Below are positions 1,934 to 5,654 of a stretch of 6,014 bases of DNA, piece after piece. Both the position numbers and the translations under genes were made by a program. Below the pieces are notes generated by a model. The model saw nothing but the letters and a program-made list of their open reading frames with translations, was not told where the DNA came from and ran no database searches. The DNA is taken from the IMG/VR virus record IMGVR_UViG_2651869781_000009; one strand, given 5' to 3'. Each line of letters opens with the position of its first letter. Position 1 is the stretch's first letter. This stretch comes from a virus (taxonomy: Duplodnaviria > Heunggongvirae > Uroviricota > Caudoviricetes).

Positions 1934-2058
1934 GGATATTTATCAGGATTTATCGGTTCCGGCCCCCTGGATATGTTAAGTCTTCAGCCCGCCGGTGGTG
2001 GGCACTGGCGTAAACCCAACAATGTGAGATGGCTGCCTCGCAAAGATAATGAACAGAT

Positions 2059-2322
2059 ATGAATGAAGAAAATACAGCGCTTTTTGACAGAATTTTCACT
2101 CTTGAGTTACAGGTCGGTTTTCTTCTCCCAAAGATAATCAAAGCCATGGATGCACTTGGTAAGAATAACGCTGTGTCAGATTACCTGATCGCCGAAATGG
2201 AACATCTCATTAAAGAAATACCAAAGACCGATGCTCGTGATGATAAAAGATTCCTCAGGGCTGCTGAAAATGCTCTTTCGACCGTGAAGCGCAGCTTAGA
2301 CGCGCCGCAAGATCAAGAATAG
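2059..2322 (+). CDS. hypothetical 87-aa acidic, predicted helical protein on the opposite strand to the lysis cassette (candidate moron)
   Basis: Only long open frame in an AT-rich segment visibly lower in GC than the flanking lysis genes, where stop codons are frequent; ATG 2059-2061, TAG 2320-2322; no clear SD; GATAAT at 2045-2050 could be a -10 giving a near-leaderless transcript. Converges on the 148-aa gene with a 15-bp gap. Confidence 0.4.
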   Translation: MNEENTALFDRIFTLELQVGFLLPKIIKAMDALGKNNAVSDYLIAEMEHLIKEIPKTDARDDKRFLRAAENALSTVKRSLDAPQDQE

Positions 2323-2337
2323 TTTCTTTCATTTCGT

Positions 2338-2784
2338 CTAATGCAAGTACCTCATCTTTTGTTGGGGTGCTTTTTTCAATTCAGAGATATAGCACTCCAG
2401 TTGTTCAATACGTGATTCAATATCATCTTTTTCTGACCGCAATGCCGTCGGTGGCGTCTTCAGAGAACCAGTAATTCTTCCCGGTAGCTTTCCTCTGTAG
2501 GTTATCAACACGTCCTGCGCCTCTAAAATGATGGGCCGCTTTTCCGGCAACGGACCATCCCCTTCACATAACCCGGCAGCAACATCCATGAAAAACTGCT
2601 TCGCCTGCTTTTTCGCCTCAGCTTCGTAAAACTCCAGCGTGGCTCCTTCAGTACGGTCAAGACTAATCGCCACATCTGGCAACAACAGTGACGGATACCC
2701 ACCAATTTCCGGTGCCACAGTAACAGTAATCTTATCCGGGTAATTATTTATCCCTTTAACAACCAGTTCGTATTTTTTCTTCAT
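2338..2784 (-). CDS. hypothetical 148-aa protein translationally coupled to the holin; possibly YdfR/DUF1327-like (family name from memory, unverified)
   Basis: ATG 2782-2784 lies 4 nt after the holin stop, with SD GGGGAGAG inside the holin 3' end; soluble protein with a C-terminal coiled-coil-like segment (DDIESRIEQLECYISELKK); sits between holin and endolysin, as ydfR does in Qin. Confidence 0.7.
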   Translation of the reverse strand: MKKKYELVVKGINNYPDKITVTVAPEIGGYPSLLLPDVAISLDRTEGATLEFYEAEAKKQAKQFFMDVAAGLCEGDGPLPEKRPIILEAQDVLITYRGKLPGRITGSLKTPPTALRSEKDDIESRIEQLECYISELKKAPQQKMRYLH

Positions 2785-2788
2785 CGCT

Positions 2789-3004
2789 TTACTCTCCCCG
2801 CGCCGCCTTACGACGGTCCTCTCTGATTTTGAAATACAGGTTAGTCAGATACGTCAGCAGGCCAAACAGCAGACTCCCCAGCACACCTATCGCCACCCAC
2901 TGGGACGGAGAGACTTTGTCCAGCAGCTGCAGTAACCAGTATCCCGTCCCCACCGCTGACGTGGTGTATGACACACCCGTTGTGATTTTTTCCATCTGGT
3001 ACAT
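2789..3004 (-). CDS. S: class II pinholin (phage 21 S-like) with dual-start motif
   Basis: 71 aa; MYQMEK... gives Met1 and Met4 starts; two TMDs (TMD1 Gly/Ala-rich SAR-like, TMD2 [23 protein letters not shown]); C-terminus [15 protein letters not shown] matches recalled S21 (YFKIKEDKRKAARGE); SD GGGAGA 6 nt upstream of Met1. Confidence 0.9.
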
Positions 3005-3079: not shown

Positions 3080-3349
3080 TTACATCATCATTTCGCCGCC
3101 AGGCTGAGGCTCACTGCTACCGTCAGGCTGAGACACAACGCCATCTGAAACAGCACTGTCACCCGCGCCGTCTTCAGGCTCAGGAGCAGCCGGTCCCCCC
3201 AGCAGCTCATCCAGAATGGCATCCACTTCAGCATCAAGACGCGCCTCAAGATTCTGGCGGAGTTGCTGTTTCAGTGCGCTTCTGACTTCTTCAGAGCGCA
3301 GGACGTCCTTCACTGCTTCAGCAGTGACCAGAGATTTTATTTCTGACAT
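3080..3349 (-). CDS. hypothetical 89-aa acidic protein with low-complexity C-terminus
   Basis: Internal ATG 3347-3349 of track ORF 3080..3505 (the long form starts at GTG and overlaps the upstream small ORF); weak SD (GAGAAAA); TAA at 3080-3082; product MSEIKSLVTAEAVKDVL...EPQPGGEMMM. Confidence 0.4.
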   Translation of the reverse strand: MSEIKSLVTAEAVKDVLRSEEVRSALKQQLRQNLEARLDAEVDAILDELLGGPAAPEPEDGAGDSAVSDGVVSQPDGSSEPQPGGEMMM

Positions 3350-3386
3350 AGGATTTTCTCGTTGAAAGGTGTTGTTAAGAAAGTTG

Positions 3387-3569
3387 CTACGAAATGAGAG
3401 GCTCTTCGGGTTTTGTTCCGGCTGACTGGCTGGCGCTGATTTTTTCCGCCGCCGCGGCATCAATCTTTTTGCGTATATAGTTCCGGATAACCTTATACCC
3501 GCCACTTACCAGATATAACGTGCACACCACCGTGCAGAAATACAATAAAATAAGCTGTACAAATCTCAT
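3387..3569 (-). CDS. hypothetical 60-aa small membrane protein (N-terminal TM helix, charged C-terminus)
   Basis: ATG 3567-3569 preceded by a strong SD (GGGAGGG, about 4-5 nt spacing); TAG at 3387-3389; product MRFVQLILLYFCTVVCTLYLVSGGYK... Confidence 0.5.
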   Translation of the reverse strand: MRFVQLILLYFCTVVCTLYLVSGGYKVIRNYIRKKIDAAAAEKISASQSAGTKPEEPLIS

Positions 3570-3716: not shown

Positions 3717-5654
3717 TTACGGGTTATTCACTTCCACTGTTATACTTTCAATCAGCACCGGATATGTCGCACCGCTAGTGATATCGGTCACGCGCAATTT
3801 GTCTGCCGTAAACGTGCCGACCGGTGACTGTGACAGCATGAACGGCGTCCCGTCCTTACCATCAATGACCGGCGTCACCTCAATACTGTTGTTACCGGCA
3901 AAACGGAAGCCCAGCGTATGCCATTCGTTATCAAATGCGCCGAATGACCCCAGCTTCGTGTTCTGACCAGCATTTCCCTTGTGGTACATCACATTAAGGT
4001 CTGTGGCATCGCTCTGTACGTAAAACGACGCCAGCAGGTTATGACCGGCATTACCTTCCAGTGTGACGCCCTGAGGCAGTGAAGAAACCGGCCAGTACAG
4101 CGCCAGTGCGTACTGATTAGCTGTCAGTGTGCCATCAACTTTAAAACGACAACTGATAAGCCCGCCCTTCTCCAGCAGGTCTGCGCCATTACCGACATCA
4201 TGCTGCATAAACCACGAGGAACTTCCTGTCTGTTTGGTCCACCTCAGCGCCTTACCTCCTGCAGCACCTGCATCATCAACTACCAATGCACGCCCTCCTT
4301 CAGCTCCCCATCCCTGCGGATTCAGTAAACCACCTGACTCTGTTGCACGGTAATAAAGCAGCGTTGTCACTGATTTCCCGTCCGTTGACGGTGTTGATGG
4401 TGTGTCCGGTGACGGCTTCTCATCCGGCGGCATCACAACCTGTTCCCCACCCACCAGTTCAGCCGTCCGTCCTGCATGGAGAAGAATCGCTGAGGCAAGA
4501 CGGTCAGAAATAATCCCCCTGCGTGCCCATGAGCTGAAATGGCTCGCACGGTCTGCTGACGTCCAGTTTGCCGACGTCCGGGAGGCCGCACCGTAATATC
4601 CTGATGCCGGAATATCCGGGTCTTCTTCCGGTTTGTTCGTCGGGACATTTGCTCCGTTCTCATCGGTCATGAACGGCACAAAGTGAATATTCTTTTCCGT
4701 TTTGTTTTTGTAACTGCCGTACACCGTCTGGTAAGTGGATTCGCTCTTCTGCTTCCAGAAATAAGTTGTGTCTCCACATATCCAGGGAACACCGTCAGCA
4801 GAACCACCAGCGCACTGTCCCACCATATCTGCAAGGTCCGTACGATATTGTTCCACTACTTCTGTAAAACGGGCTGTGTGATTTGCTGGCGTTCCGTCAA
4901 AGTCAAATTCCCCCTGCATCCACACCACGGCAAGCAGCACATTTTTCGGGTTCTTTGCCAGCGCGGCTTTTGTACGACCGATGAGATCCTTATACAGCGG
5001 CCTGCCCACACCCCAGCGGGTAGAACTCTCTGAGGCACCGGTCACGTCACTGTATGTTCCATCTGCCCCGGTGGTGAAAGCTGAACCACCACGGCAGCAC
5101 GGAACCAGAAGAATACCCGCATTCGCCGGTATAAACGGCAGCAGCTTTTTGGCAATATGCAGCCCCTGCCCCACGGTTCCGTACTGACCTTTCGACAGGT
5201 CAGCTTTCGGATGGTTAAGACGGCTCATGTCCTGTACATCATGCAGACAGTGGTCTGCCGGAATAATGTCGTTATATTTACAGGGAGCGCCATCCGGCGT
5301 CACTGTGCTGCGACGAGCCAGTTGCTTTATACGCGGGTCAGGACGGTCATATGTCTGCGGCAGAGGAAGCCCCTCACCGTAAGCCATGCCGTTCGACTGC
5401 CCGGCCAGTGGAATAACGTAGTAATAATCTGGCTCCGTGGTGACCACTCCCGGATAGCCACCATCCCCCGTGCCGGGCACAACCACTGGCGTGGTCACAT
5501 CCCCCTCCGCGGCAATCGCCTGCATCAGGGTATAAGGGGTTATGGCCACAGGACTACCAAACGGCTGCCAGCCCTCTTTCAGTTTGTGTGTCAGCTTTTC
5601 CGCAAGATCTGACGGCGACGCCGCCCTGACAACATCATAATGTTTAATCGACAT
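3717..5654 (-). CDS. nanS-p: prophage-encoded sialate O-acetylesterase, NanS-p-like (SGNH/SASA esterase)
   Basis: 645 aa; GQSN SGNH-hydrolase block I motif (IPLAGQSNGMAYGEG); length and position (after late promoter, before S) match NanS-p/yjhS homologues of O157 lambdoid prophages as recalled; ATG 5652-5654 preceded by GGGAGA at 6 nt. Confidence 0.85.
   Translation of the reverse strand: MSIKHYDVVRAASPSDLAEKLTHKLKEGWQPFGSPVAITPYTLMQAIAAEGDVTTPVVVPGTGDGGYPGVVTTEPDYYYVIPLAGQSNGMAYGEGLPLPQTYDRPDPRIKQLARRSTVTPDGAPCKYNDIIPADHCLHDVQDMSRLNHPKADLSKGQYGTVGQGLHIAKKLLPFIPANAGILLVPCCRGGSAFTTGADGTYSDVTGASESSTRWGVGRPLYKDLIGRTKAALAKNPKNVLLAVVWMQGEFDFDGTPANHTARFTEVVEQYRTDLADMVGQCAGGSADGVPWICGDTTYFWKQKSESTYQTVYGSYKNKTEKNIHFVPFMTDENGANVPTNKPEEDPDIPASGYYGAASRTSANWTSADRASHFSSWARRGIISDRLASAILLHAGRTAELVGGEQVVMPPDEKPSPDTPSTPSTDGKSVTTLLYYRATESGGLLNPQGWGAEGGRALVVDDAGAAGGKALRWTKQTGSSSWFMQHDVGNGADLLEKGGLISCRFKVDGTLTANQYALALYWPVSSLPQGVTLEGNAGHNLLASFYVQSDATDLNVMYHKGNAGQNTKLGSFGAFDNEWHTLGFRFAGNNSIEVTPVIDGKDGTPFMLSQSPVGTFTADKLRVTDITSGATYPVLIESITVEVNNP

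Follow-up and report, generated by a model that had tools for sequence, protein, structure and literature searches.

The open reading frame (ORF) of 87 codons at positions 2,059–2,322 of the viral record IMGVR_UViG_2651869781_000009 (Caudoviricetes; the whole stretch analysed, 6,014 nt, is called the window here) is very probably the cargo gene of a self-contained moron cassette that sits, in antisense orientation, within a lambdoid prophage's late (lysis) operon. In all likelihood the cassette comprises a putative promoter region marked by the invariant TAnnnT, a leader about 75 nt long, the ORF itself and an intrinsic terminator that is confined to the plus strand. All of it is found again in five prophage contexts that are unrelated to one another, so that the cassette is an independent one, passed between prophages and oriented antisense to the late operons that hold it. 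Taken alone, the 87-aa ORF would be one more uncharacterised moron in a prophage of the Shiga toxin (Stx) type. The unexpected result is its structured leader, which is common to many cargo families, is absent from Rfam and occurs in dozens of Enterobacterales species. An earlier note, made from the letters of the window and its ORFs, had proposed a moron at this position; that interpretation proves largely right, and the accompanying ideas of a near-leaderless transcript and of a modulator of lysis timing are not supported.

The window corresponds to the late region of a lambdoid prophage of the Stx type, whose late genes are on the minus strand. Between the endolysin gene R and a 148-aa DUF1327/ydfR-like gene the lysis strand has a gap of 404 nt (1934–2337), in agreement with the roughly 400 nt given before, and the plus-strand ORF lies inside it; its stop and that of the convergent 148-aa gene are 15 nt apart, as had been stated. 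The ORF has 42.4% G+C compared with 49.9% over the window as a whole; R is at 53.7%, the holin gene at 54.2% and the DUF1327 core at 48.4%. The AT-richness of the ORF is therefore real but only moderate. The argument that so long a frame is unlikely by chance also holds in part: an ORF of at least 87 aa arises in 119 of 5,000 mononucleotide shuffles of the gap (2.4%), which is unusual but not decisive, and several spurious antisense ORFs in the window are longer, so that length by itself is no more than suggestive.

What decides in favour of coding is comparison: selection on the codons, openness of the frame and homologues in unrelated contexts. Pairs of homologues with a synonymous divergence (dS) of 0.25–1.6 have ratios of nonsynonymous to synonymous divergence (dN/dS) of 0.11–0.28; the ratio is 0.16 between the 87-aa form and a 91-aa form from E. 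coli, which differ by 12 nt with the reading frame preserved. Substitutions among the homologues fall on codon positions in the order 3 > 1 > 2, and in six diverged homologues frame +1 alone is free of stops, which is the conservation of the reading frame whose absence the earlier note had named as grounds for rejecting the gene. By these measures the ORF is a real coding gene under purifying selection. The Prokaryotic Genome Annotation Pipeline (PGAP) annotates exactly this coding sequence (CDS) as a hypothetical protein (WP_001001501.1), with RefSeq variants WP_024246813.1 (87 aa) and WP_021565043.1 (91 aa); the gene is identical at the DNA level (100%) to annotated genomes, and the frame is intact, identical or nearly so, in at least 11 genomes. 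The protein matches PHROG 18136 over its full length (E 9.5e-55, residues 1–87 on profile positions 1–87), a family to which no function is attached. It has 30 relatives among 5.8 billion proteins, mostly from E. coli but including a Citrobacter protein at 68% identity, and tblastn finds a gene at 61% identity in phage CharmingMan. A profile search of 1.84 billion cluster representatives returned 9 clusters only, members at 26–53% identity included, and homologues at 26–68% identity extend to Citrobacter, CharmingMan and other prophages. One sister allele (L002 2160–2423) ends in SSGAQLIQE rather than SLDAPQDQE and regains the frame for its last residues, which looks like a compensated double frameshift.

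Upstream of the gene the conservation is higher still. The 130 nt preceding six homologues in five genomic contexts contain a shared non-coding element that is conserved better than the protein, and the same leader precedes the unrelated cargo of E. coli JNEC-KY174. An alignment of 45 diverse copies has a constant order: the invariant TAnnnT, 6 nt, an invariant TCAGCC, an 8-bp helix P2, a variable linker ending in GAGGGAT, then GGCTGA, TTACCTC, the Shine–Dalgarno (SD) sequence TAAGGA and the start codon. In the window the -10-like hexamer is TATGTT, with the T, A and T of the motif invariant across the 45 leaders. Because this hexamer ends 6 nt before the invariant TCAGCC, we infer that transcription would start near position 1984. 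RNAalifold pairs TCAGCC with GGCTGA as a helix, P1, that encloses P2 and the GAGGGAU, which is rich in purines. In the alignment, pairing holds in 97.5% of cells, each of the 8 P2 pairs shows compensatory changes on both sides (55 cells), none of 500 shuffles reaches the observed values, and slid registers pair in 19–43%. Covariation therefore supports the predicted structure, and does so on the plus strand. Variation in P1 consists of C-to-U changes only, giving U-G pairs, and P2 is rich in U-G pairs as well; on the opposite strand these wobbles would be A-C mismatches, so the structure belongs to the mRNA of the plus-strand cargo and not to the endolysin transcript. In Xenorhabdus and Photorhabdus copies P2 is absent, with P1 and the 20-mer around its 3′ strand kept.

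These observations bear directly on the possibility that the ORF is spurious, an accidental open frame in a non-coding spacer or in a structured leader of the endolysin gene. The chance rate of 2.4%, the missing SD in the window and the lack of a Pfam family count in favour of such an account, and a conserved structured RNA element does adjoin R; the refutation foreseen in the earlier note, a conserved structured endolysin leader, thus applies in form only. The element is on the plus strand, serves the ORF and has wobbles unfit for the endolysin strand. The homologues of the gene also occur without an adjacent endolysin gene (L011, beside terS; L014, beside a methylase gene), their SD is good, and selection acts on the one frame that is open in all six. 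We consider an accidental frame highly improbable. A 65-aa minus-strand ORF at 1950–2147 overlaps both the leader and the beginning of the 87-aa gene. This ORF is itself probably spurious, since it has no family match and the minus-strand frames across the 87-aa ORF hold stops in the homologues.

The leader is far more widespread than the gene that it precedes in the window. The invariant 20-mer GAGGGATGGCTGWTNACCTC matches at least 120 IMG/VR stretches. In a collection with one genome per species it occurs in 84 stretches, of which 54 were confirmed by a covariance model (R1), and all 54 belong to Enterobacterales (Enterobacter, Citrobacter, Pantoea, Erwinia, Pectobacterium, Xenorhabdus, Photorhabdus and others). 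The ORFs behind the leader fall into at least 23 unrelated families as BLAST clusters, most of 63–99 aa and nearly all without a known family, one cluster being DUF1883 and one DUF6602. R1 also scores well outside its training set, with 107 bits for the copy at HK633 gp65 and 99 bits (98.9) for that at ES18 gp25, and the leader is found in mEp213, mEp043, SPN3UB and Oslo, where no annotated feature lies under the match. Leader loci were noted at 1972–2058 of the window and in L010, L011, L014, L029, L152–L154 and L032–L151. Rfam 15 has no match to the leader at gathering score in 6 sources, and nothing relevant at E up to 5 for either the window copy or the canonical copy in L010; the leader is likewise absent, by name and by sequence, from the searchable literature. 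The Citrobacter prophage L010 has Rfam matches to STnc100, isrK, C4 antisense RNA and the cspA thermoregulator elsewhere (6527–6728 and 9178–9365), which are typical of Gifsy-like cryptic prophage regions. In CharmingMan a two-gene plus-strand operon was considered and rejected: the upstream 193-aa 'gene' is broken by stops in L029 and is antisense to a minus-strand gene. This CDS0001 (L004 1–582) is probably spurious, a 196-aa minus-strand ORF covering the region.

Where these cassettes sit was counted in 90 non-redundant viral examples. Genes on the strand opposite to the cassette flank it upstream in 69 of 81 cases and downstream in 71 of 77. With neighbours assigned to roles from their homology to a small set of references, tail-tip genes adjoin the cassette in 37 of the 90, and 14 of the 90 are near lysis genes. 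The lysis cassette is thus one of several usual sites and not special, contrary to the view that the ORF lies in an unusual place, since leader cassettes are generally antisense in late operons. These counts also weaken the proposal that the product regulates lysis, as an antiholin-like protein or as a modulator of endolysin or spanin, which would explain its position and would fit the finding that all five contexts of the 87-aa family are within about 2 kb of lysis genes. The neighbouring holins differ (S21-type, holin_2_3 and holin_3_1), the endolysins are lysozyme or GH19, and the 87-aa protein has no membrane segment. Moreover, a gene antisense to the late operon would be shut off head-on just as the lysis genes are made. 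A lysis regulator, and with it the modulator of lysis timing suggested earlier, is in our judgment improbable.

Comparison with the canonical O157:H7 locus, in which ydfR (114 aa) is followed directly by R, defines the extra DNA as 456 nt. The whole segment is present in 42–44 of 5,426 complete E. coli genomes and its flanks in thousands, so that the insertion is indeed present or absent between the ydfR-like gene and R, as the earlier note had asked to see. The segment is bracketed by 10-bp direct repeats, and two matches of this kind were obtained in 0 of 200 shuffles. The end of canonical YdfR (...PPLA and stop) is informative here. Its last codons and stop run antisense to the leader's 5′ end, which suggests that the common short ydfR arose by deletion, probably via microhomology of the direct repeats. 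This corrects the picture of the locus, in that ydfR in the window is not simply truncated. In near-identical genomes PGAP labels the CDS homologous to the 148-aa gene as incomplete YdfR; residues 1–112 of the 148-aa protein are the DUF1327 core, its tail is encoded at 2338–2445, and its final 13 codons or so are the antisense of the cassette terminator. The 5′ flank of R (1934–1985) coincides with the putative promoter region of the cassette and is retained in canonical loci without cargo.

Other cargo occupies the same site. Phage PhiR5_1 has an unrelated 86-aa plus-strand gene, strain JNEC-KY174 a 95-aa plus-strand gene, and GN06667 and 2014C-3061 a 161-aa minus-strand reading frame. PhiR5_1, GN06667 and 2014C-3061 also keep a remnant of the 87-aa gene, its last 24 or so codons together with its terminator; since this 3′ end survives beside other cargo, recombination inside the gene must have exchanged the cargo. 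On the evidence of these alignments the ydfR–R junction is a hot spot of cargo exchange. PHROG 1085 (296 aa) and PHROG 2091 (183 aa) are long DUF1327 proteins (L005 2433–3068, L006 1545–2533, L009 995–2027) whose central portion is read from the strand opposite to what survives of the 3′ end of the 87-aa gene (2251–2340 of the window), and in PHROG 1085 the antisense reading runs on into the neighbouring 161-aa cargo frame; both could have arisen as read-through fusions. The long DUF1327 frame of GN06667 is split by a 1-nt deletion, and PGAP calls these ydfR genes incomplete.

The copy in the window departs from the common form in the region before the start codon. As the earlier note had observed, it lacks an SD and has GATAAT at 2045–2050. 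This hexamer was taken as a possible signal for a near-leaderless transcript, but it is the product of one G-to-T change in the SD (AATGA in the window versus AAGGA in the 91-aa E. coli relatives), and a leader of about 75 nt precedes the ORF in all relatives. The AAGGA expected some 6–10 nt before the start codon, or any other AGGA-type SD, is missing from the window copy. The invariant 20-mer is also degenerate, reading GAGATGGCTGCCTCGCA without GG and ATTA, a form shared by all E. coli copies at the ydfR–R site. P1 retains 5 of 6 pairs and P2 has 8 pairs, one of them G-U; R1 gives the copy 70 bits (it is in the training alignment). In the minimum free energy (MFE) fold a 6-bp UGUGAG/CUCGCA hairpin replaces P1. 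Since the deletions in the 20-mer favour this GAG/CUC hairpin and the SD is mutated, the window cassette is a derived copy whose expression may be altered or weak. The terminator is conserved: CharmingMan, L029, L010 and PhiR5_1 all keep its hairpin, with at least one A-T pair exchanged for G-C as a compensatory change. There is no U tail on the minus strand, and late transcription should for that reason pass the terminator.

Such changes could mean that the window holds what is left of a formerly functional cassette, now decaying towards a pseudogene. The change from AAGGA to AATGA, the two deletions in the 20-mer and the 12-nt N-terminal deletion relative to the 91-aa form would all be in keeping with decay, as would the scrambled C-terminus of the L002 sister variant and the loss of all but the last codons in PhiR5_1, GN06667 and 2014C-3061. 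However, the frame is undamaged in at least 11 genomes, P1, P2 and the terminator are retained, and dN/dS between the two E. coli forms is 0.16. Within the 87-aa, SD-mutated lineage the members have 9 differences and a dN/dS of 0.54, which says little either way. We regard decay as doubtful, though as a serious possibility for this copy, and continue to favour a cassette that carries a constrained cargo gene.

The product is predicted to be a soluble, acidic three-helix bundle. AlphaFold2 with a deeper alignment places helices at residues 3–33, 38–56 and 63–81 with a mean predicted local distance difference test (pLDDT) score of 81; the protein has an isoelectric point of 4.97, no cysteine, no hydrophobic span and no signal peptide, and the highest 19-residue Kyte–Doolittle mean is 1.30, with no transmembrane segment. 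No Pfam family matches it, holin families included, PADLOC-DB 2.0 gives 0 families at E up to 0.1, and structure searches return generic helical matches only. The searchable literature had no matches to the accessions, the PHROG identifier, the 20-mer or HK022 'srb'. Profile comparison weakly links the 87-aa family to a 95-aa family like ES18 gp25 (hhalign probability 74%, E 2.8e-5), which is a probable distant homologue.

This link is relevant to the idea of a two-gene module made up of the ORF and the DUF1327 gene convergent with it, which would work either as partner proteins or through mutual antisense control by their overlapping 3′ ends, and would move together. The 95-aa family converges on a short DUF1327 gene at 8 of 8 sample sites, with ES18 left out of the count and showing the same arrangement; at a ninth site (L231) there is a convergent DUF1327 gene, and the cargo there was not identified. 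The window has the same convergence, with the terminator inside the DUF1327 tail, and YdfR of E. coli K-12 is reported to bind the catalytic half of RNase E and to co-purify RNA (PMC13232886). In contrast, no DUF1327 neighbour is detectable beside the homologues in Citrobacter, CharmingMan, L011 or L014, and ydfR is common without the ORF. A module that moves as a pair is an unlikely account of the 87-aa gene; its functional association with the ydfR-like gene is possible. The pairs of 95-aa and DUF1327 genes (L154 2611–3163, which is ES18 gp25/gp24; L008 1625–2144; L045, L067, L069, L105, L109, L114, L127 and L128) are embedded among tail genes in the case of ES18, and within the lysis cassette in that of E. 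coli JNEC-KY174; because they are found in both settings, this pair appears to move as a two-gene unit.

Returning to the cassette as an autonomous unit, a mechanism can be proposed for its expression. Other morons are transcribed from their own promoter in the lysogen (PMC3594210), and by analogy the cassette would be transcribed from its own promoter in the repressed prophage; after induction, head-on Q-modified late transcription would silence it. The leader probably tunes translation via mutually exclusive pairings, P1 on one side and a GAGG/CCUC hairpin on the other, with CCUC otherwise free to cover the SD. Such competition would explain why the core of the leader is invariant. The UUACCUC part of the leader resembles the 3′ end of 16S rRNA (GAUCACCUCC). 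More broadly, we tentatively suggest that the leader represents a kind of cis-regulatory RNA not described before and acts as a portable platform for expressing hypervariable small prophage proteins (at least 23 families); it is conceivable, and put forward with similar reserve, that its core is invariant through exclusive pairings among a pseudo-SD, an anti-SD like the 16S 3′ end and the real SD. A CsrA site (ARGGAUG together with the GGA of the SD) was also considered in the 20-mer. The product itself would most likely act by binding a partner protein. A role in phage–phage or phage–host conflict (exclusion, defence or counter-defence) is suggested only by the way that cargo is swapped rapidly while the leader stays constant.

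Several points weigh against this interpretation. A sigma-70 consensus scan upstream of the ORF returned no promoter, and there is no convincing -35. P1 is nearly invariant, and covariation therefore cannot prove it. The alternative pairing is a hypothesis drawn from sequence and MFE folds, in which the anti-SD and SD form only 3–4 bp. With a mutated SD and a degenerate 20-mer, the window copy could be decaying. A function for the product is unsupported by homology, given the blank Pfam and PADLOC searches and the generic fold matches.

Two further conserved features occur 5′ of the -10-like element. In most loci (for example L152 2440–2490) there is an inverted repeat ACTGATCGAATATCAGG (CTGAT-N5-ATCAG), of which the window keeps only the right half (TATCAGGAT, 1941–1949) beside the start codon of R; the second, in many cases, takes the form of a strong hairpin and an A/T run (GCCACC...GGTGGC) that would terminate minus-strand transcripts. 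The two might act as operator and insulator. For the palindrome a LexA box was rejected by eye, as the spacing is CTG-N9-CAG and not N10, and no promoter motif of the CII type or the P2 Ogr type was seen by eye.

If the leader is indeed such a platform, the cargo set would be a reservoir of conflict factors that can be mined by searching for the leader. The leader offers a handle on moron expression, from promoter through leader to terminator, and a search key for small prophage accessory proteins to be entered into screens for exclusion, defence, counter-defence and virulence. The coordinates of the cassette and of the neighbouring genes are collected in Table 1. In the case of the DUF826 gene (3080–3505) the mechanical ORF has 141 aa from a GTG; its start is probably internal, because Pfam matches residues 53–125 only and the PGAP versions of its relatives are shorter, at roughly 89–96 aa.

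Table 1. Cassette elements and neighbouring genes, in coordinates of the window
Feature	Position	Strand	Remarks
Rz	443–910	minus	
Endolysin R	1400–1933	minus	Pfam Phage_lysozyme
-10-like hexamer	1972–1977	plus	TATGTT
Leader, structured part	1984–2042	plus	leader about 75 nt
P1, 5′ strand	1984–1989	plus	TCAGCC
Direct repeat, first copy	1989–1998		CCGCCGGTGG, 10 bp
P2, 5′ strand	1990–1997	plus	CGCCGGTG, then loop GTGGG
P2, 3′ strand	2003–2010	plus	CACTGGCG
Leader linker	2011–2025	plus	
Degenerate copy of the 20-mer	2026–2042	plus	GAGATGGCTGCCTCGCA (consensus GAGGGATGGCTGATTACCTC)
P1, 3′ strand	2031–2035	plus	GGCTG, inside the 20-mer copy
Mutated SD region	2045–2050	plus	GATAATGAAC; GATAAGGAAC in the 91-aa E. 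coli relatives, TAAGGA in other leaders
Cargo ORF	2059–2322	plus	ATG start, 87 aa, PHROG 18136, WP_001001501.1
DUF1327/ydfR-like gene	2338–2784	minus	148 aa, convergent partner of the cassette
Intrinsic terminator	2345–2372	plus	stem AAGTACCTCA...TGGGGTGCTT, then TTTTTCAATTC; antisense inside the last codons of the 148-aa gene
Direct repeat, second copy	2445–2454		CCGTCGGTGG, 10 bp
S21-type holin	2789–3004	minus	
DUF1378 gene and DUF826 gene	late region of the window	minus	
SASA/nanS-like esterase	3717–5654	minus	

Morons are recognised as extra DNA between normally adjacent genes, with their own promoter and terminator, a deviating base composition and expression from the repressed prophage (Juhala et al. 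2000; Cumby et al. 2012, PMC3594210). The cassette in the window has the 456 nt beyond the canonical O157 ydfR–R junction, its own orientation, a factor-independent terminator conserved in four other contexts, and 42.4% G+C against 48–54% in the neighbouring genes, which bears out the moron pattern described in the earlier note; as for a promoter of its own, it has the invariant TAnnnT 6 nt before the leader, with no good -35 and a blank consensus scan. The classical morons lambda bor, lambda lom and HK97 gp15 each possess a promoter and a terminator of their own and lie inside or beside late genes, and lambda bor adjoins the lysis genes in the direction opposite to late transcription, as the 87-aa ORF does. 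Bor is a lipoprotein and HK97 gp15 a membrane protein, both with phenotypes, whereas the 87-aa product is soluble, with neither signal peptide nor transmembrane segment; a shared structured leader is not among the described features of bor, gp15 or lom. Further parallels are found among phages with the same leader. ES18 gp25/gp24, described as possible morons, resemble the window in that the cargo converges on a DUF1327 gene, but they lie between tail genes M and L, the DUF1327 gene has 86 aa and the cargo 95 aa. The HK633 gp65 moron has the same leader too. Another counterpart is HK022 gene 23 'srb' (NP_037683.1, 'moron gene product'), which has the leader (R1 109 bits, as a training member), a small cargo of 73 aa and its own terminator, and stands as a lone gene antisense to the late operon. 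Its cargo falls in a BLAST cluster apart from that of the window, to which it is unrelated (hhalign probability 0.2%). Gene 23 is placed between tail genes I and J, outside the lysis cassette, and its 20-mer and SD, unlike those of the window copy, are intact.

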